Virus record (IMG/VR): IMGVR_UViG_2541047706_000005 | Span: 1 to 46,627 of that record | Strand: one strand, 5' to 3' | DNA: 46,627 bases | DNA from: a virus | Taxonomy: Duplodnaviria > Heunggongvirae > Uroviricota > Caudoviricetes | In this document: piece after piece, positions 33,757 through 46,627 of the stretch | Layout: the number at the start of each line of letters is the position of its first letter | Position numbering within the stretch: position 1 is the first letter of the stretch | Program-made: the position numbers and the translations under genes | The notes under the pieces: generated by a model | What the model was told of the DNA's origin: nothing | Databases searched by the model: none | The model's input: only the letters and a program-made list of their open reading frames with translations

Positions 33757-33879
33757 ACTGGGCGTCTAATGAGGGCTTCTGGCAGGTGATAAGGGAGATC
33801 ACCGGCGAGGAGTATGCCAGCCCGGCGCAGTACCGGCAGCGCTACCTTCTCGCCGCGCTCAAAGAAAGAGGTTTCTTCA

Positions 33880-35697
33880 ATGGTAGCTAAGTCGATCGTC
33901 GACATTGACGTAAATGACGACAAGTTTGTCGCGTTTATGGAAAGGTTTCGCGAGTACCAGAGCGCGCTGGATGATTTACCGGAAGCCTGGCGGGTAGCTG
34001 CCGTTGGTATTGGCGAAAGCAGCAAGCAGACCGAAAAGGCCAAAGGTGAGACGAAGGAGTTAGGCGCGGAGTTTAATGCCGTGGCCGAGGCCATTCTGAC
34101 TATCAACAGTGGTATCGATCGGCTCAATACCAACCTGGAAGACTCGAAGAAAAAGCAGGACGAATTCAACAAAAGTACTCGCTCTGCGAAGGGCTTCCTC
34201 AGCGATGCGACGAAAGACGCTAAATCGCTGGCAGGGCATATCAAGGAAGCGACGGCCAGCCTTCTGTCATGGGGTGGCATTGTCGGGATATTTACCGGCG
34301 TCCTTGGCGTTGGCGGCCTGTTCGGCATCAACCGGCTGGCTGCCACCACCGGTGCCCAGCGGTTTACTTCTCTCGGGCTTGGGACGAGTATCGGCGCACT
34401 TGATTCCACCGCCATAAACTACCAGAAAGCACTCGGTAATCCGGCGGGTACGCTGGGCGCTATCCGCGATTCGCAAATGGACCTGTCGAAGCGCTGGACG
34501 TTTCAGGCGATGGGGATTAACAACCCCGACCAGGACCCGGCCAAACTGCTCCCGCAGATGATCCGTAATGCGCGCGATATCTTCGTGCAGAACGGCAGCA
34601 CGCTGCAGGGCGCACAGGCGCACGGCCTGACAAACTTCTTTACACTGGACGACCTGAACCGCTTCAAAAACATGAGCGATGAAGAGATCACCGCCATGGA
34701 GAAGCGCGCGCAGCAGGATGCGCGTATGTTGCAAATTACCGACCAGCAGGCGCGCCAGTGGCAGGATTTTAACGTCCAGCTCGACTACAGCAGCCAGAGC
34801 ATCAGGAACACGTTTGTGCGCGGCCTGGGGCCACTCACGCCGCAACTGAGCAAGCTGTCTGATGCGCTGTCAGGCGCGATCGATACCGTTCTGAAATCAC
34901 CCGAACTCGGCAAGTGGATTGATGCGCTGGCCGGCGGCATTGAGCGATTCGGTAATTACCTCGCTTCTCCTGAATTTTCCACAGATGTAAGCAACTTTAT
35001 GGACAAAGTAGAGAAAATGGGAAATCTAATTGGCAAGGTTATTGATTGGGTAACAGGGAAAGCGAGTATCTCTACTGCGGATATATCATCCGGGGCAACG
35101 ATGTTGAGCCCAAGCACCATCATCGATCCGAAAACGGGAAAATCCTATACTCCTGGAAGCAATGATGACCCGCATGTATGGGGCTGGCTCAAGGGTGTTA
35201 GGCGCTTCTTTGAAGATGGAACCGTTAAAGCTGTTGATCCCACACCTGCAAATACTTCCGACAGAAACAGGACTATTGCAGATCGATTTAATAATCCGGG
35301 AAATCTGCGGTGGGCTGAAGGATATAGCAGCGAGAATACGAGAAGCGGTAAATTTGCCGTCTTCCCAACGCTGGATGAAGGCGTACTGGCGGCGACAAAG
35401 CAACTTCAAATGTATGGCGCTAAAGGAATAAATACGGTAGGAGATATTGCAAGAAAATGGGCTCCTCCTAAGGAAAATAATACCGCTGAGTATATTCGGC
35501 ATGTGGTTAAAACTACTGGATTTAATGAGAATCAGAAACTGAATCTCAATGATCCTCAGGTTATCGCGAAACTCATTTCTGCTATATCTCAAAAAGAAGG
35601 GGCTGGTAGCAGAGTTTCTGAGAGCACAGTCATTCAGATCTATAACAATACCGGTGGGAATGCAGTGGTAACTTCAGCGCAATTGGGGGCGAGGTAA
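33880..35697 (+). CDS. Tail tape measure protein (putative)
   Basis: About 605 aa, coiled-coil-rich N-half; start taken at internal MVAKSIV. Confidence 0.55.
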   Translation: MVAKSIVDIDVNDDKFVAFMERFREYQSALDDLPEAWRVAAVGIGESSKQTEKAKGETKELGAEFNAVAEAILTINSGIDRLNTNLEDSKKKQDEFNKSTRSAKGFLSDATKDAKSLAGHIKEATASLLSWGGIVGIFTGVLGVGGLFGINRLAATTGAQRFTSLGLGTSIGALDSTAINYQKALGNPAGTLGAIRDSQMDLSKRWTFQAMGINNPDQDPAKLLPQMIRNARDIFVQNGSTLQGAQAHGLTNFFTLDDLNRFKNMSDEEITAMEKRAQQDARMLQITDQQARQWQDFNVQLDYSSQSIRNTFVRGLGPLTPQLSKLSDALSGAIDTVLKSPELGKWIDALAGGIERFGNYLASPEFSTDVSNFMDKVEKMGNLIGKVIDWVTGKASISTADISSGATMLSPSTIIDPKTGKSYTPGSNDDPHVWGWLKGVRRFFEDGTVKAVDPTPANTSDRNRTIADRFNNPGNLRWAEGYSSENTRSGKFAVFPTLDEGVLAATKQLQMYGAKGINTVGDIARKWAPPKENNTAEYIRHVVKTTGFNENQKLNLNDPQVIAKLISAISQKEGAGSRVSESTVIQIYNNTGGNAVVTSAQLGAR

Positions 35698-40174: not shown

Positions 40175-40879
40175 ATGCTGGACGATATCATCCGGTCGTA
40201 TATGTATACGCAATACAACGACGATGACAATCTGCGGGCGTTTTTTACTGCGTATAACTCGATGGCGCAGGGCATTTATGACTGGATGGTTAATGCCAAC
40301 CTGCCGATTTTCATCGGTGACTACAACACCGGAGACCAGCTCAGATGGATTGCCCATGGCATCTATGGCGTGTTGCCGCCGGTGATTTCCAGCAGCGATC
40401 AGCAGGAGATAGGCCCATATAACACCTTCGAATTTAACCAGTTGGCATTCAATGAATACCGGGTGATTGACCAGTCGAACCAGGTTGTTGTCTCCGATGA
40501 CATTTTTAAGCGGATCATGACCTGGAATTTTTATAAAGGTGACGGCTTCTATTTCTCTATCCCATGGATAAAACGGCGTATTCTGCGGTTCCTGTTGGGA
40601 GTGAATGGCACCGATATCCTCAATGACCAGCGGTGGAGTATATCGATCCAGTTTGTGGATGGCGGGATCGTGATATCCATCTATAAGGGGCGCCGCAGGT
40701 TCACGCGGAGCGCTATCTACAACGCATCGGCCTATAACTCCAGGAAGTACAACCAGAAGGACACGGCCTTTGTGATCACCGAGGATTTCGAGTTCGCTAT
40801 TTTCTTCAAGCAGGCCATGGATAGCGGCCTGCTGCACATGCCGTTCTATCAGTCAATTTCGGTGGAAATTATTGATTGA
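40175..40879 (+). CDS. Baseplate/tail protein
   Basis: ORF track. Confidence 0.45.
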   Translation: MLDDIIRSYMYTQYNDDDNLRAFFTAYNSMAQGIYDWMVNANLPIFIGDYNTGDQLRWIAHGIYGVLPPVISSSDQQEIGPYNTFEFNQLAFNEYRVIDQSNQVVVSDDIFKRIMTWNFYKGDGFYFSIPWIKRRILRFLLGVNGTDILNDQRWSISIQFVDGGIVISIYKGRRRFTRSAIYNASAYNSRKYNQKDTAFVITEDFEFAIFFKQAMDSGLLHMPFYQSISVEIID

Positions 40880-40937
40880 AGCACAGTTCCTGTGGTGTAG
40901 AATTTATCGCATCCACCACAGCATGGTTATCATTAAA

Positions 40938-41639
40938 ATGAAAAAATTGGTCCTTCTCGGATTATTGTCAGTTTCACTATGCACGGGTACTTCCCTTGCA
41001 GCTTCATTTGATTGCTCTAAAGCAAAAAGCTTTGCTGAGAAAACAATATGTGAGAACCCTAAGCTTTCAAAGGATGATGATGACTTAAAATATTTATATG
41101 CAAACGCTAAGGCATACACCAAAGACCGGAAGGCGTTTTCTGAGATAACTAAAGCTCTTTTGGATTCAAGAGAACGTTGCAGTGATCTCAAATGTGTTGA
41201 TGAATGGTATGATACTGCGTTTGCAATTTACGGCGCCATAAAGGAAACTGGCATACCAGAAACCAATGGCGTAAATGATATATTAAAGAATGAAGGTGTA
41301 ACAAAACCTTCAGAAATTAATGAAAAACCTACTGAGATTACAACGCCGTCAGCCAAGAAGACAAAGGAAAACAAAAAAGATTTTAGTTTGTACGACTCAA
41401 AGGATAGAGCCGCGCCAGTTGAACATAACGCAATATTATATAAAGACACTCCAGAGGCATTCGAATTTATAGATACACTTGTTGGGTTTGTCAGACAAAG
41501 CTCTTACAAATGTGACTCTGTTAGCTCTTTCATACCCTTGGTTTCATCGAATGGCTTTACGCTCGCATGTAATAAATTCAGCTACAAATATGAAATTAAA
41601 AATAACGGCGGAAATGTCTCTGTTTCTGTAGATAATTAG
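40938..41639 (+). CDS. Secreted DUF1311/LprI-like protein (moron)
   Basis: Signal peptide MKKLVLLGLLSVSLCTGTSLAAS; Cys motif C..A..FAEKTIC..P.L...D..L..LY; AT-rich, own promoter-like element and terminator. Confidence 0.6.
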   Translation: MKKLVLLGLLSVSLCTGTSLAASFDCSKAKSFAEKTICENPKLSKDDDDLKYLYANAKAYTKDRKAFSEITKALLDSRERCSDLKCVDEWYDTAFAIYGAIKETGIPETNGVNDILKNEGVTKPSEINEKPTEITTPSAKKTKENKKDFSLYDSKDRAAPVEHNAILYKDTPEAFEFIDTLVGFVRQSSYKCDSVSSFIPLVSSNGFTLACNKFSYKYEIKNNGGNVSVSVDN

Positions 41640-41687
41640 CTCAAAGCCCACGCCAGTGGGATTTCATAAATAACACATTGATAACAT

Positions 41688-41712
41688 CAAACCCGCTTCG
41701 GCGGGTTTTTTT
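41688..41712 (+). terminator. Rho-independent terminator after the moron
   Basis: aacccgc-ttcg-gcgggtt followed by T-run. Confidence 0.65.
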
Positions 41713-41733
41713 ATGCCTAAATCCGGAGGAGAC

Positions 41734-44640
41734 ATGGCACTAACCCTTTTGGCTACAAACAACGCAGAAAGCACGCTGGCTTCTGCTATCAGCGCAACCG
41801 ACACGTCGCTGATCGTTAGCGCTGGAACTGGTGCCGAGTTCCCTGATGCTGTGGCAGGCGAGAGCTACTTTAAACTCACTCTCACCGATGCCGCCACCGG
41901 CTCACAGGTTGAGATCGTGAACGTGACAGCCAAGGCTGGGGACATCTTCACGATTGAACGCGCACAGGAAGGAACGATGGCGCGTGCATGGGCGGCCAAC
42001 GATATGGTTGCCAATATGATGACCGCTGACACGCTGAATGTGATCGCACAATACACGCAGCAGGCCGGGGAATCAGCAGCACAGTCAATTGAGGCGGCTA
42101 ATAACGCCTCTGAATATGCAAAGAACAAATATACATTCTACAAAACCGCCGGCGATCCTGATGGCACCATTGCGGGCCTGGCGGCGACAACTGACGGACA
42201 GTCGTTCTGGGTAGCTCAGGGGCCAGATGCGCTTTCTGCTGCATGGCAGTATCAAAACAATGCTGGCGTGGCCGTATTGCAGGCAAAGCAGCCAGGCACG
42301 GCAGCCATAACCGGGACAATCCGCGAATTCCCCACGCTGGAGGCGGCACAGGATGATGCCGATGCCGGCAATATTCCTACAGGTTCAACTGCGTATTATC
42401 GAAGCGCTGACGACGAAACTCTTGCGATTGAGGTCATTAACACTTCAGGAACGCTGCAGCCTACTGGACGAAAAATGCCATCCGCAATGCCAATGGGTTA
42501 CCAGTCTGCTACAGCTGTGAGTAGCGGTGCGGCTAATACCATTGCTATCACTATCCCCGGATTATTAGTGGACGGAAGCTTAATTTATTTTCTGTCCCCT
42601 ATATTGAACACCTCATCAGTCAATGTGACTGTAACTGATGCTAAGGGTAATTCTGTAATAAGAGCTGTACAGAAACAAAATAACGCGCCATTAGTCGGAA
42701 GTGAATTGCTGCTAAACCAGCCAGTATTAATGGAATTCCGCACTGGGACTGCTAACAATTTTGTCCTTGTGGCATCCGGCCCAGTAGCTGCTGAACTTGC
42801 GTCAAGAATTTCCACGCTTGAATTAAATAGCGTAGCGTTATTGTCTGGCGTTGCTAATACTGCGGACGCCTACACCGCGTCAGCGTCAGCGATACCAGGC
42901 CTGGTTGCCTCTGACCGCGTTTTCCTTTTCACTCCGAGTGCGACGAACACGACACGGACGCCGACCTTATCCGTGAATGGCGGCACTGCGCGCCAGATCA
43001 AACAGGCGAATGGTACCAACGTCGCAGCGGGAGACCTGGTCTCTGGCTACCCTTATTTATTAAAATTCAATTTTGCATCGGCTGACTTTCGTATGCTCAC
43101 ATACCCAGCGGACCGGACGCGTCTGCTCAGCGGCCAGCAGAAGGCCACCGTAACCAGTGACGCAACAAGCCCGAACGCTATATCTTTAACAATCCCGGGC
43201 CTTATCGCGGACGGCACACAAATCACATTCGAGCCAGCTGTCACCAATACCGGGGCGGTGACGCTGCTAATCACCAACATGTATGGCGACACCGTGACTC
43301 GCACCCTGATGAAAGGGGCTAACACTCCTCTCGTCGGTGGTGAACTGAAGTACGCCATGCCGGTTTCTATCATGTTCAGGGGGGCTCCACAGAACAACTT
43401 TAAGCTCCTATATGCTGGCGACCCTACCACGGATATACAGACCCTATCGAACGACGTTACGACGCTCAAGGGGTCGCTGACAGACCCTTATGCTGCTCTG
43501 GCGGATAAACTCGTGGGCACCGGGGTATCATCAGACCAGTCACCATTCGGTACTATAACTTGGTCCGCGGGGGTTAAGAGCGTCACTAAGCGGCAGATCA
43601 TTTGTACGTCTGTCGGGTCTTCTGTTGGCGTTGGGGCCGGCTCTACTGGCGGTGGTGCGGCAGGTGCCGCTTATGCACCGAACACACTGTTCGTCAACGC
43701 CTTGAAGGAAGAGCTTAAACAGTACGGCGAGTTTGACGTCATCGATGACAACCAGTGCATACCAACTCAGGCGATTCAGCAGTTCGCTGCCCAGCTAGCG
43801 AATTCGCCTTATTCAACCTCCGACTTTGTTTTGATTGTAGGGGGGATGAATGATGCGCCAGTTGGTAACTTCAACATGGGGCGCACATTCCCCGGTCAAC
43901 AAACGTCTCTCGAGTCGCTGGTAGACTTGTGTCTGGCACGAGGAGCGATTCCAATCATTTGCACTACTCCACATCATAATGTGGAAATGTCTCAGACGTA
44001 CCCCACAATCCCCGGTGGTAACCCGCTGTTCTGGCCGTTCAGGACATATAATGTCACAAGTACATATGTCTTCGACGCCGTTGCAAATACCATCACGCAG
44101 AGTAACTTTGCTAACCCGAATTATGGCGGCAATATTCTGAAGCCGGGGCATACTCTGCGCGTAGAAAGTGGAGACAATATCGGCAACTATACTATCACGG
44201 CCATTTCCTCTGACCGGAATACCATAACCGTCCAAGAGACAATCCCGGTAAGTGGAAGCTACTCGACAACGGTCAGACACTTTAACCTGCAGTCCATCGC
44301 TGAGGATATTCTTTACCCTGCACCGTCGGTTTCCTTTGTAACAAAAGACTGGTCCGGTAGCGGCGTTAAGGTACAGGGAGATGTGCGGTTCGAAATGGTG
44401 AATAATATGCAAAGGGTCGTCGCACGCAAAAAAGGCGCGTTCCTCGCAGACTGTGAAAAGTCGTTCTTTAAGTATGGTGTAGAGGTTGGTGGTTACTCGT
44501 CGGTATATAACGTCCCAGCTGGAAACTACAATCACATGAACGATAACGGGTACACAGTAACTTTCGACTACACGCTGAAAGTCGCAGCAAGGAAGATTGC
44601 CAATCTCATATTCGGAGATAAATATTACTCTGCAGCATAA
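41734..44640 (+). CDS. Tail fibre protein with three internal repeats and C-terminal SGNH/GDSL-hydrolase-like domain
   Basis: N-terminal domain shared with second fibre; three approximately 90-aa repeats (IPGL..DG...PLVGGEL...NF.L); C-terminal blocks GSSVG and GGMNDAP. Confidence 0.65.
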   Translation: MALTLLATNNAESTLASAISATDTSLIVSAGTGAEFPDAVAGESYFKLTLTDAATGSQVEIVNVTAKAGDIFTIERAQEGTMARAWAANDMVANMMTADTLNVIAQYTQQAGESAAQSIEAANNASEYAKNKYTFYKTAGDPDGTIAGLAATTDGQSFWVAQGPDALSAAWQYQNNAGVAVLQAKQPGTAAITGTIREFPTLEAAQDDADAGNIPTGSTAYYRSADDETLAIEVINTSGTLQPTGRKMPSAMPMGYQSATAVSSGAANTIAITIPGLLVDGSLIYFLSPILNTSSVNVTVTDAKGNSVIRAVQKQNNAPLVGSELLLNQPVLMEFRTGTANNFVLVASGPVAAELASRISTLELNSVALLSGVANTADAYTASASAIPGLVASDRVFLFTPSATNTTRTPTLSVNGGTARQIKQANGTNVAAGDLVSGYPYLLKFNFASADFRMLTYPADRTRLLSGQQKATVTSDATSPNAISLTIPGLIADGTQITFEPAVTNTGAVTLLITNMYGDTVTRTLMKGANTPLVGGELKYAMPVSIMFRGAPQNNFKLLYAGDPTTDIQTLSNDVTTLKGSLTDPYAALADKLVGTGVSSDQSPFGTITWSAGVKSVTKRQIICTSVGSSVGVGAGSTGGGAAGAAYAPNTLFVNALKEELKQYGEFDVIDDNQCIPTQAIQQFAAQLANSPYSTSDFVLIVGGMNDAPVGNFNMGRTFPGQQTSLESLVDLCLARGAIPIICTTPHHNVEMSQTYPTIPGGNPLFWPFRTYNVTSTYVFDAVANTITQSNFANPNYGGNILKPGHTLRVESGDNIGNYTITAISSDRNTITVQETIPVSGSYSTTVRHFNLQSIAEDILYPAPSVSFVTKDWSGSGVKVQGDVRFEMVNNMQRVVARKKGAFLADCEKSFFKYGVEVGGYSSVYNVPAGNYNHMNDNGYTVTFDYTLKVAARKIANLIFGDKYYSAA

Positions 44641-44974
44641 GGAATTATCATGGCTTTTAAAATTTCAGCAGTAAAACTGTCCAGATTTATTATCTCGGAG
44701 GATTTCTGTGTGAAAAGGATATCGGTATTGACCTCATTTACTCAGTAGAAAGCGTCAGGCAGGGTGATGCAGGTCAAGTTAAAGCCTCAGTATCTGTTCG
44801 ATATAATGATGCGTCCAGAGTTAACGCTGGAGAGTATGCGGTAACTCTGGACACTTCGTCATCAAAACCGTGGACAGAACAGGCTGAGCAGCAACTTATG
44901 CAAGCTGAAGAGTTTGCTGGGGCAGTTGTCCTGTAACCACAAAAAAAACCTACGCAGACTGAACGGGGTTGACT

Positions 44975-45022
44975 GCCCTCCGATAAAACTACTGTATATA
45001 ACAACAGTGTTTATCGGAGGGC
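44975..45022 (+). promoter_or_regulatory. LexA (SOS) box CTGTATATAACAACAG nested in a 13-15-bp perfect inverted repeat, overlapping a promoter
   Basis: CTGT-N8-ACAG at about 44992..45007; flanking arms gccctccgataaa / tttatcggagggc; TTGACT upstream; ggaggg RBS and ATG downstream. Confidence 0.6.
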
Positions 45023-45027
45023 AGATC

Positions 45028-45267
45028 ATGCTTCGACAGTCAGACATCGCCGCGGCTTTCCGCGAGTCCATTTTGCGCAGTTCCAAGGGGTTCCAGTACC
45101 TCCACACCCGCGACTTCGTTACCGCGCTTCGCCGGCGTGGCATCCATTTTTCCGAGGTGGAGGCGAACTCCTGGATCGCACGCGAGCAGACGTATTTCGT
45201 CGATAAGACGCCGGACCATAGCGAAAACAGGCTGTGGATGATGGCCAACATGGGGAGGGTGATCTAA
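45028..45267 (+). CDS. Small protein (79 aa) of unknown function, putatively SOS-regulated
   Basis: Start MLRQSDIAAAF with RBS; within ORF-track frame 44914..45267. Confidence 0.5.
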   Translation: MLRQSDIAAAFRESILRSSKGFQYLHTRDFVTALRRRGIHFSEVEANSWIAREQTYFVDKTPDHSENRLWMMANMGRVI

Positions 45268-45584
45268 TGGGATTCCCTTCACCAGCGACGGACTACGTTG
45301 AGCAAAGGTTGTCTGTTAACTCGATCTGCAATGTCGGCCCAAACACGCTAGTTTTCGAGCGATCTGGCGGTTACGTTGTGCTGGATATCTCCCTGAAGCC
45401 AAAGCAGGGTAGTCAGGTTCTTATCCAGCACGGCGGCGGGACGGAGCTTGCCACGCTGAGAGGAAAGTCACTGATTACTGAAGATGGTGAAGCGATCGAG
45501 GGCGAAGCCCTGGACGATGTTACTGTCATCGGCGTCGTGACGTTTACTATCTGCGATGTTCGTTCCGATAATTCTATTATTTAA
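45267..45584 (+). CDS. UmuD'-like protein lacking the N-terminal arm and apparently lacking the catalytic Ser
   Basis: Begins MGFPSPATDYVEQRLSVN, aligning with UmuD from its Cys24-Gly25 cleavage site (CGFPSPAADYVEQR); SGDSM region reads RSGGYV. Confidence 0.55.
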   Translation: MGFPSPATDYVEQRLSVNSICNVGPNTLVFERSGGYVVLDISLKPKQGSQVLIQHGGGTELATLRGKSLITEDGEAIEGEALDDVTVIGVVTFTICDVRSDNSII

Positions 45585-45595
45585 CTGGGGTATAT

Positions 45596-46627
45596 ATGGC
45601 GATGAAGCTATTAGCCAATAATAACGCAAAGAGTGTTCTCGCTGCGGGTATTAGCGCGTCCGCTACCGTTATTACCGTGGGTACTGGAGCGGGGTCTTTA
45701 TTCCCGTCCCCTGTATCTGGGCAGAGTTATTTCAAATTAACGATAACCGACGCGGCCACGAAAACAATTTCTGAAATTATGCACGTCACGTCTGTATCCG
45801 GTGACGTGATGACAGTAATTCGTGGTCAGGAAGGAACTACGGCACGCGTATGGTCAACGAATGACATTGTCGCGAATTTAATGACCGCCGGATCATTGTT
45901 GTCGTTCCTGCAGATCAGCAATAACCTGTCAGAAATTAAAGATGCCGGTGAGGATGCGATAAATGAAGCCCGTTATAACCTCGGAATATCTGATTCCTCT
46001 GGTTTTGTCGGGCGTTCACTTGGCGCTCCAAAAGCTTTCTATGCAAACGGAACCTATACGCGATCTCCTCTGGCCCGTTATGCAAAAGTAACGTTGACCG
46101 GTGCCGGTGGCGGCGGTGGCGGCTGCCAGGCCTCCAACAATACAGAAACCTTCTCCGGTGCTGGCGGCGGCGCGGGCGCGACCATTATCGTATGGGTTGA
46201 CCTGTCTGCTGCCAGTTCTTATGCGATTACTGTCGGCAAGGGTGGTAAGGGCGGAGTTGGCGCAGTAAGTGGTGCGGATGGTGGGGCCACCTCGTTTGCC
46301 AGCCTGTTCTCAGCTCCTGGCGGGAAAGGAGGAGTGAAGTCAGGCGTGTCCAATACCGCCGGCGGCGCCGGAGGTACGGCGGCGACCGGAGATATCAGGA
46401 TCAACGGTGGTACCGGCTCAGATGGACAGACAGGCTCAAGCCTTCTGACGGGCAACGGCGGGGCGTCGTATTTTGGCGGCGGTGGCCGGGCGGGTTCTCA
46501 GGCCGGTATTGCTGGCGCAGCTCCCGGATCCGGTGGTGGTGGCGCGTATGACCTTGGGTTTACCGGTACGGCATTTACCGGTGGTGATGGTGCTACTGGC
46601 ATGGCGATCGTGGAAGAATTCGCGTAA
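45596..46627 (+). CDS. Second tail-fibre protein (paralogous N-terminus, Gly-rich C-terminal domain)
   Basis: N-terminal about 100 aa alignable with the first fibre; C-terminus rich in GGxGG repeats. Confidence 0.65.
   Translation: MAMKLLANNNAKSVLAAGISASATVITVGTGAGSLFPSPVSGQSYFKLTITDAATKTISEIMHVTSVSGDVMTVIRGQEGTTARVWSTNDIVANLMTAGSLLSFLQISNNLSEIKDAGEDAINEARYNLGISDSSGFVGRSLGAPKAFYANGTYTRSPLARYAKVTLTGAGGGGGGCQASNNTETFSGAGGGAGATIIVWVDLSAASSYAITVGKGGKGGVGAVSGADGGATSFASLFSAPGGKGGVKSGVSNTAGGAGGTAATGDIRINGGTGSDGQTGSSLLTGNGGASYFGGGGRAGSQAGIAGAAPGSGGGGAYDLGFTGTAFTGGDGATGMAIVEEFA

Follow-up and report, generated by a model that had tools for sequence, protein, structure and literature searches.

A low-GC cargo gene in the tail module of a temperate myovirus encodes a predicted exported protein with a widespread, uncharacterized C-terminal domain

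We describe a gene, here called the cargo gene, that lies between the last baseplate gene and the first tail-fiber gene of a temperate myovirus (IMG/VR record IMGVR_UViG_2541047706_000005; the window is the whole stretch analyzed, 46,627 nucleotides, positions 1 to 46,627 of that record). The window encodes an integrase, a CI-like repressor, a terminase, a portal, a sheath, a baseplate hub, and a baseplate-J-like wedge. The cargo gene is under strong purifying selection, behaves as a moron in a cargo-exchange hotspot of this phage lineage, and is predicted to encode an exported protein with a divergent DUF1311/LprI-like N-terminal domain (N-domain), a variable linker, and a second domain at the C terminus (C-domain). 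The main point of interest is this C-domain, an unrecognized and widespread unit that recurs as cargo in the tail modules of phages. Coordinates of all features are collected in Table 1.

A gene under purifying selection in an exchangeable slot

We found 43 homologous clusters and aligned 22 full-length homologues that are 42 to 91% identical. Calculated from unsaturated distances, the ratio of nonsynonymous to synonymous substitutions (dN/dS) is 0.03 to 0.08 in both the N-domain and the C-domain, and 0.34 to 0.9 in the linker. Because the ratio is this low in both domains and the homologous clusters are this numerous, we conclude that the cargo gene is a real gene under strong purifying selection. 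The open reading frame (ORF) is intact at all 23 loci inspected. An inactive passenger, that is, a decaying remnant with no current role, would be in keeping with the loss of the T run behind the first downstream hairpin (see below), but it is contradicted by the dN/dS values, according to which both domains are strongly constrained in Klebsiella, Escherichia, Serratia, Yersinia, and other genera, as well as by the intact ORFs, and we consider it very improbable. In the ORF list the frame runs from a TTG at 40872 to 41639; the ATG at 40938 (MKKLVLL...) is the start common to all homologues, and an alternative in-frame ATG at 40923 is absent in Escherichia coli WI2 and out of frame in Yersinia.

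The composition of the gene deviates from that of its surroundings, with a GC content of 0.37 to 0.38 across the gene versus 0.50 in the upstream and 0.52 in the downstream flank. At 22 further loci with a homologue the gene stands out in the same way, and over all 23 loci, the window included, the gene has 0.33 to 0.38 and the flanks 0.40 to 0.53. The upstream flank is formed by a baseplate-module gene that also precedes the cargo in Klebsiella phage Chronis and in E. coli, Yersinia, and other prophages; in the window it has the same orientation as the cargo gene and is separated from it by 58 nt. Downstream, the longest ORF of the tail-fiber gene starts at an ATG (41713) within a terminator T run; the start that is conserved is the ATG at 41734, and related records annotate the fiber from there (MALTLL).

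The nearest sequenced phages are the Klebsiella phages Chronis, RothC, and RothD. A homologue of the cargo gene occupies the same slot in Chronis (gp22), in the E. coli WI2 and STEC346 prophages, in three Yersinia enterocolitica prophages, and in 17 IMG/VR contigs. In RothC and RothD the flanks are 96.6% identical to those of the window, and the slot holds an unrelated reverse-strand ORF of 133 amino acids (aa) with a signal peptide. Other loci vary in further ways: one carries extra genes after the cargo (L028), one has the cassette behind baseplate genes of a different backbone (L026), and one holds a slot allele in which this N-domain is paired with a different C-domain (L040; variant P0035). 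Since close relatives hold different cargo between the same flanks, the cargo gene behaves as a moron in a cargo-exchange hotspot of this lineage. Whatever the mode of action of the protein, the gap between baseplate and fiber genes is thus a hotspot for exported-protein genes.

The first-pass annotation had described an AT-rich, self-contained moron at 40878-41712, placed between the last baseplate gene and the first tail-fiber gene. A single gene lies within these coordinates. The placement holds, with a phrog_8212 gene upstream and the fiber downstream, as does the composition (GC 0.37 versus about 0.51 in the flanks), and the moron reading is strengthened by the variability of the slot in RothC, RothD, L040, and L028, by the GC deviation, and by the terminators.

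The RothC cargo ORF is unannotated in its record (PP934563.1, L002; 4792-5193, minus strand), which annotates three ORFs of 31 to 43 aa in its place. Its product has a clear signal peptide (MKVIIRLLISLIFSSASVNAFA/SP...), and it gave zero matches in Pfam or PADLOC.

Table 1. Features of the cargo slot and of the protein encoded in it, in window coordinates
Feature	Position	Strand	Description
Last baseplate-module gene	40175-40879	+	234 aa; phrog_8212; follows the baseplate-J-like wedge; left border of the slot
Sigma-70 promoter-like site, TTGAAG-16-TAGAAT	40876-40903	+	9/12 match; putative function
8-bp perfect inverted repeat, CTGTGGTG / CACCACAG	40890-40897 / 40914-40921	+	16-nt loop holds the -10-like hexamer
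Cargo gene	40938-41639	+	233 aa plus stop; PHROG 33858; precursor of a predicted exported two-domain protein
Signal peptide, residues 1-21	40938-41000	+	MKKLVLLGLLSVSLCTGTSLA/A; predicted type I, no lipobox; n/h/c features
N-domain, residues 23-110	41004-41267	+	divergent DUF1311/LprI-like, predicted helical; four invariant Cys (C26, C38, C81, C86)
Linker, residues 111-147	41268-41378	+	low complexity; variable in length and sequence; pLDDT <35; dN/dS 0.34-0.9
C-domain, residues 148-233	41379-41636	+	uncurated family; predicted topology b-a-b4; two invariant Cys (C192, C211)
First hairpin, CCCAC-GCCA-GTGGG then ATTT	41647-41660	+	weakened counterpart of the cassette's own terminator; degenerate tail
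Strong intrinsic terminator, AAACCCGC-TTCG-GCGGGTTT	stem-loop 41689-41708, with T run to 41715	+	8-bp stem, T7; right border of the slot
Tail-fiber gene	41734-44640	+	probable start ATG 41734 (MALTLLATNN...); Shine-Dalgarno sequence GGAGGAG at 41725-41731

Predicted export of the product

The signal peptide was judged by a home-made feature scan (n/h/c organization and the -3/-1 rule). Its features are present in 21 of the 22 homologues, with one or two K/R residues (KK in the window) and a 10-residue hydrophobic core (hydropathy 2.2 to 3.4), and the cleavage site SLA/A after Ala21 satisfies the -3/-1 rule in 17 of the 21 complete homologues. The lipobox pattern [LVI][ASTVI][GAS]C was not found: Cys16, in the context V-S-L-C, has Leu at -1 and is not conserved among the 22 homologues. 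Since the signal-peptide features are present and a lipobox is absent, the product is predicted to be a soluble periplasmic protein, and we infer export by Sec, cleavage by signal peptidase I, and disulfide formation in the periplasm. The cleavable signal peptide that had been proposed for this gene is therefore supported at the level of sequence features. A role in the virion or as a chaperone was also considered and was rejected on account of the predicted signal peptide.

The C-domain defines a widespread family

An exhaustive hidden Markov model (HMM) search with the C-domain alone recovered 642 representative clusters (clustered at 50% identity) at E ≤ 1e-3, 223 of them at E ≤ 1e-10. Most of these proteins are about 95 to 105 aa long and consist of a signal peptide and the domain. 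The domain is almost always C-terminal; in other members it is preceded by a canonical PF07007 domain with Sel1 repeats (P0078), by a zinc-ribbon membrane anchor, or by some different N-terminal portion. Neither Pfam nor NCBIfam holds a model for the family, and the sources call its members hypothetical.

The 22 close homologues left the C-domain unmodeled in AlphaFold, whereas the deeper alignment from the exhaustive HMM search yielded a predicted b-a-b4 topology, which appears cystatin/PepSY-like. Pfam cystatin and PepSY models gave no match to the window protein, and the QxVxG motif is absent from it. The fold class recurs in protein enzyme inhibitors (cystatin, latexin, and fetuin-B) and in PepSY domains (YpeB and YpmB).

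Members of the family were found in phages and in accessory regions of other mobile elements. Within baseplate modules of other prophages, standalone C-domain genes (P0065 and P0063) are encoded on the strand opposite to the tail genes, and P0063 adjoins ant/arc/mnt. Further members were found in a phage early region (P0210), on a phage-like contig (P0072), beside insertion sequence elements (P0214), and in an island with a restriction-modification gene (P0133). Judged from these sequences, the C-domain is an autonomous, uncharacterized, phage-associated unit. As a sizeable family of 642 clusters that recurs as phage tail-module cargo, it deserves a model of its own.

In another prophage lineage (L033, 5001-7000, and L034), a P22-type immI set comprising an antirepressor, Arc, and a Mnt-like gene is found together with a standalone C-domain gene between baseplate genes, a setting that is out of the ordinary for an immunity region.

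The N-domain is a divergent DUF1311 domain

The cysteine motif of the N-domain, SFDC-x11-C ... R-E-x-C-x4-C, is invariant in the 22 homologues. The Pfam model of DUF1311, PF07007 (gathering threshold, 22 bits), shows no match to the window protein at E ≤ 1 in a Pfam scan and matches just one of the 22 full-length homologues, at E 0.13; in addition, none of the 43 homologous clusters carries a precomputed Pfam domain. A distant relative, P0043, is 40% identical over the N-domain and matches PF07007 at 24.5 bits, over profile positions 1 to 72 of 106. Searching with an N-domain profile brings up small exported proteins, 7 of 21 of which carry a precomputed PF07007 domain, and hhalign comparison with those seven, using an N-domain profile from which P0043 had been left out, gave a probability of 98.8% (E 1.3e-16, 74 columns, 42% identity). 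This alignment superimposes ASFDC-x11-C and W/L-x3-R-[DE]-x-C-x4-C, so that the four cysteines match those of the PF07007 proteins. BLASTP of the whole protein against a PF07007-bearing protein (P0045) gave 40% identity at E 3e-16.

The predicted structure adds little either way on DUF1311 membership: the AlphaFold model of the N-domain has four helices at a predicted local distance difference test (pLDDT) score of 80 to 93, a profile search of PDB sequences returned nothing useful, and Foldseek of the full-length model against the PDB gave no match at E < 1. On profile-level homology we assign residues 23 to 110 to a divergent DUF1311 domain that falls below the Pfam threshold.

The first-pass annotation had likened the N-terminal cysteine motif to the DUF1311 lysozyme-inhibitor (LprI/YecT-like) domain and had named the lack of a DUF1311 match in an HMM search as an outcome that would speak against it. 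Formally that outcome is what the search with PF07007 gave, while profile-profile comparison and BLASTP uphold the homology, over a DUF1311-like part that makes up only about 38% of the protein. The assignment itself is not new, because the name "lysozyme inhibitor LprI family protein" is already given to homologues from E. coli and Klebsiella by the NCBI annotation pipeline PGAP. That automatic name covers only the N-terminal third of the protein and overstates what is known.

Transcription signals at the two ends of the cassette

The cargo gene had been credited with its own promoter-like element and a strong terminator. The promoter-like site is present exactly where it had been described, and its -35-like hexamer overlaps the stop codon (TGA, 40877-40879) of the upstream gene. 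A scan of 2.5 kb found four sites with a 9/12 match versus 4.5 expected from shuffled sequence, and since the count equals that of the shuffles the match alone is no evidence for a promoter. What support there is comes from positional conservation: in diverged cassettes, where the upstream DNA can no longer be aligned, a TAnnnT hexamer keeps its spacing to the start codon (TAGTAT, TAAACT, TACGAT, TACAAT, and TACACT).

An inverted repeat surrounds the -10-like hexamer, and RNA folding of 40890-40921 shows a hairpin. Hairpins with other arm sequences occur at the same place in diverged cassettes (9 bp in L017, 12 bp in L025, and about 12 bp in L026). Strict covariation was considered and dropped, given that the hairpins of diverged cassettes lie in a different register; their recurrent presence remains. 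As an RNA hairpin, the repeat would require a transcript that begins ahead of the proposed promoter; as an operator, it would occlude the -10.

Downstream, the first hairpin has a degenerate tail in the window, and three other loci (L025, L026, and L028) have a full terminator with a T run at this position (e.g., CCCACC-ATCA-GGTGGGTTTTTT). The strong terminator that follows is kept from Klebsiella and E. coli to Yersinia prophages, with the same stem and a different loop. It is also present in phage RothC, beside a cargo that differs and is reversed, and it is therefore a boundary of the slot and not a property of the cargo gene alone. Of the two signals claimed earlier, then, the promoter-like element is real as a sequence and occurs at chance frequency, and the terminator exists and is conserved, although it belongs to the slot and is common to other cargo.

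These signals bear on a reading in which the gene serves a late phage function, being read from the tail operon in lytic growth to tune or delay lysis or to keep progeny off debris, with the upstream hairpin as an RNA element of the late transcript. The shared orientation with the late genes and the 58-nt gap behind the baseplate gene fit this reading, as do the chance-level promoter match, the recurrence of hairpins with different arms in diverged cassettes, and an inverted repeat that includes the -10 and forms in RNA only if transcription starts upstream. The position of the gene is, moreover, kept from Klebsiella to Yersinia prophages. However, standalone C-domain genes run opposite to the tail genes and so lie outside the late operon, RothC and RothD do without the gene, which is thus dispensable for lytic growth, and foreign GC content together with terminators is typical of autonomous morons. 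We regard a late function as unlikely.

Domain shuffling and independence from the tail fiber

Alleles of the cargo gene are mosaics with a breakpoint between the two domains, because synonymous divergence from Chronis differs between them: dS is 0.19 in the C-domain and saturated in the N-domain. More broadly, N-domains 47 to 72% identical occur in fusions with at least four C-terminal regions other than this one. One such variant allele (P0035) occupies exactly this slot in the same phage lineage, and another (P0026, from Salmonella; L005, 822-1781) follows fiber and fiber-assembly genes at a prophage end near lepA, beside an Arc-like gene. Variants P0023-P0036 and P0040, of 300 to 326 aa, combine the same N-domain with some 170 aa of conserved C-terminal sequence (..NDMQIGGIK..RDK.IC...SANSDGKGVL...EPEFIF.FSDI.KY), for which no family match was found.

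In the tail fiber, the first approximately 250 residues are kept across the lineage (58 to 91% identity), and almost all relatives have a different sequence in the distal part. At least 12 different fiber C termini stand beside C-domains that are 97 to 99% identical, and the window and locus L021 share a fiber type and differ in the N-domain alleles of their cargo. No co-variation of the cargo with the receptor-binding fiber tip was therefore seen among these relatives, and this independence suggests that the target of the cargo, if it is an incoming phage, is not receptor specific.

In the distal part of the window fiber, residues 635-763 weakly resemble a GDSL/SGNH esterase domain, with a score below the Pfam cutoff, which suggests that the fiber is a polysaccharide-deacetylating receptor-binding protein.

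T5 Llp and the Cor proteins of phi80 and N15 are receptor-blocking lipoproteins encoded next to receptor-binding genes. By analogy the cargo protein could bind the outer-membrane or surface receptor of the phage's own fiber and block adsorption; its gene lies directly upstream of the fiber gene, its product is predicted to be exported, and its C-terminal domain is exchangeable within the slot. The independence from the fiber tip described above argues against such masking, as does the lack of a lipobox and hence of a membrane anchor. The SGNH/GDSL-like domain, furthermore, points to a surface polysaccharide, which would be beyond the reach of a soluble periplasmic protein. A lipoprotein or receptor-masking role was accordingly rejected, lipobox and fiber co-variation both being absent; it is largely excluded, and we judge it improbable.

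Proposed function and its alternatives

Tentatively, and with less than even confidence, we propose that the cargo protein acts in the periplasm by binding or inhibiting a peptidoglycan hydrolase that arrives there. The gene would probably be transcribed alone from a weak sigma-70 promoter, also in the lysogen, with the transcript ending at one of the two downstream hairpins. Export through Sec and cleavage by signal peptidase I would give a mature periplasmic protein of about 212 aa, in which a disulfide-bonded DUF1311-like domain is connected by a floppy linker to a disulfide-bonded cystatin/PepSY-like alpha+beta domain. This protein would act stoichiometrically on an enzyme that comes into the periplasm from outside and cleaves peptidoglycan. 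One candidate target is the lytic transglycosylase or lysin that a superinfecting phage carries in its tail, in the manner of T4 Spackle; about as likely a target is a lysozyme-like effector of a type VI secretion system (T6SS), as for DUF1311 immunity proteins, and host lysozyme is a less likely one. The outcome would be protection of the lysogen, either as superinfection exclusion or as T6SS immunity.

The proposal draws on the record of the DUF1311 family, on the use of the cystatin/PepSY fold in inhibitors, on the phage-module context, and on the independence from the receptor; a tail transglycosylase is an attractive target, and this phage's own tail carries such a domain (see below).

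The DUF1311 record is as follows. LprI inhibits lysozyme according to citations in other papers, and the LprI of Mycobacterium tuberculosis contains an MliC domain besides DUF1311 (PMC7933661). The DUF1311 protein ScwA of Salmonella is periplasmic, has two disulfides, is horizontally acquired and low in GC, and alters the levels of MltD, Slt, and AmiC (PMC7933661). In enterohemorrhagic E. coli the DUF1311 protein Etsi4 rescues the toxicity of Etse4 and thus acts in T6SS immunity (PMC12981562), DUF1311 orphan immunities occur in Pantoea (PMC9796082), and the Pantoea DUF1311 protein Psi15 adjoins an effector with a pesticin domain (bioRxiv 10.64898/2026.08.01.741415). DUF1311 proteins are thus used, or predicted, as periplasmic immunity against cell-wall-degrading T6SS effectors (PMC12981562; PMC9796082; bioRxiv 10.64898/2026.08.01.741415). 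The thread among these proteins is the binding or control of periplasmic peptidoglycan-cleaving enzymes and not lysozyme inhibition as such. The suggestion that the protein inhibits lysozyme cannot be read from the domain: MliC (PF09864) has no match in the window protein in the Pfam scan, and ScwA gives no protection from lysozyme (PMC7933661).

Several observations weigh against a hydrolase binder. The lysozyme activity of M. tuberculosis LprI may sit in its MliC domain, which is absent here, and ScwA leaves lysozyme sensitivity unchanged, so a DUF1311 protein need not inhibit lysozyme (PMC7933661). As reported above, PF07007 does not match the window protein, and at E ≤ 0.1 no PADLOC model matched it, its allelic variants, or the RothC cargo. 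Taken alone, the promoter match does no better than chance, and the proposal does not account for the inverted repeat around the -10.

The ScwA findings also open a different route, in which the cargo protein is directed at the host, either as an envelope modulator that tunes the cell's own peptidoglycan hydrolases or as a biofilm or virulence factor. Besides ScwA, a periplasmic low-GC DUF1311 protein that changes the levels of such enzymes (PMC7933661), this reading can appeal to the LprI of Cronobacter, which is reported to contribute to biofilm or virulence, and to the only match in the NCBIfam scan, a weak one to the envelope-related putative colistin-resistance family A1S_1983 (E 0.0013). 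That match is far below the cutoff, however; ScwA differs in architecture, its DUF1311 domain being C-terminal in a 275-aa protein; the similarity is found only at the superfamily level; and the association of the C-domain with tail modules fits a phage-related role better. We hold a host-directed role to be doubtful, though within reach.

On the hydrolase-binding proposal, the alleles of the slot would invite a further and more speculative step, to which we give only a minor chance: the slot may encode a polymorphic periplasmic shield, with a constant DUF1311-like module and interchangeable C-terminal binders, the C-domain among them, each against a different class of incoming hydrolase, for example tail lysins of competing phages or T6SS muramidases. 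If so, the slot would represent a new superinfection-exclusion or immunity family and would provide a first function for the C-domain. Likewise, if the protein guards lysogens against incoming cell-wall hydrolases, a Spackle-like exclusion or immunity mechanism would exist in the temperate phages that infect Klebsiella, E. coli, Yersinia, and related bacteria, phages which matter for phage therapy and strain competition.

Other features of the tail module

PHROGs and PGAP assign a lytic-transglycosylase/endolysin-like region to the C-terminal part (residues about 475-615) of a 627-aa tail protein (33814-35697), which has zero Pfam matches at E ≤ 0.01. Between the two fiber genes lies a second stretch of lower GC content (0.41 to 0.49; 44640-45596), with short ORFs on both strands (e.g., 45234-45584, plus; 44862-45251, minus) and zero Pfam matches. 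Its counterpart in the E. coli prophage encodes hypothetical proteins of 79 and 105 aa, the latter called UmuD in RothC, and the stretch may be another cargo or accessory region. The second fiber-like gene (45596-46627) combines the N-terminal attachment region of the first fiber with a glycine-rich domain (PF21722) and stops exactly where the window does; the gene that comes next in E. coli WI2 is the integrase intS.

Comparison with known systems

Phage morons in late or tail operons include bor and lom of lambda, the HK97 morons, and Z/fun, tin, and old of P2, following the concept of Hendrix and Juhala. The cargo gene resembles them as an extra gene amid conserved structural genes that is absent or replaced in close relatives and deviates in composition, with a promoter-like site upstream, a terminator downstream, and an envelope-bound product. 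It differs in having no sequence relationship to the lambda, HK97, or P2 examples, and its strong terminator is common to any cargo of the slot.

With PF07007 proteins (LprI, ScwA, Etsi4, Psi15, and PP0307 of Pseudomonas putida, PDB 3gi7) the product shares predicted export, the motifs C-x11-C and W/L-x3-R-[DE]-x-C, and a four-cysteine domain that is helical in the predicted model. Unlike members of that family, it has a shortened domain that scores below the threshold, an unrelated second domain, and no MliC domain, and it is not a lipoprotein; unlike the T6SS immunities among them, its gene sits in a prophage tail module and not beside a T6SS effector. The C-domain likewise stands apart from cystatin, latexin, and PepSY by its own motifs, P-[IV]-E, C-D-S-[VI]-S, and Y-x-Y-x-I-x-D-x-G-G, and by a predicted disulfide, so that the likeness would be one of fold only.

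Like T5 Llp and the Cor proteins of phi80 and N15, the cargo gene is encoded beside the fiber gene and its product is envelope directed; unlike them, the product has no lipobox and does not co-vary with the fiber tip. T4 Spackle (Sp, gp61.3) is a periplasmic inhibitor of the tail lysozyme gp5. The cargo protein is comparable in mode of action only, as a small, phage-encoded, signal-peptide-bearing and presumably periplasmic protein; Spackle itself belongs to the early genes of a lytic phage and consists of a single domain, and no homology is expected. A receptor-independent target in the tail, as for Spackle, would fit the lack of co-variation between the cargo and the fiber tip.

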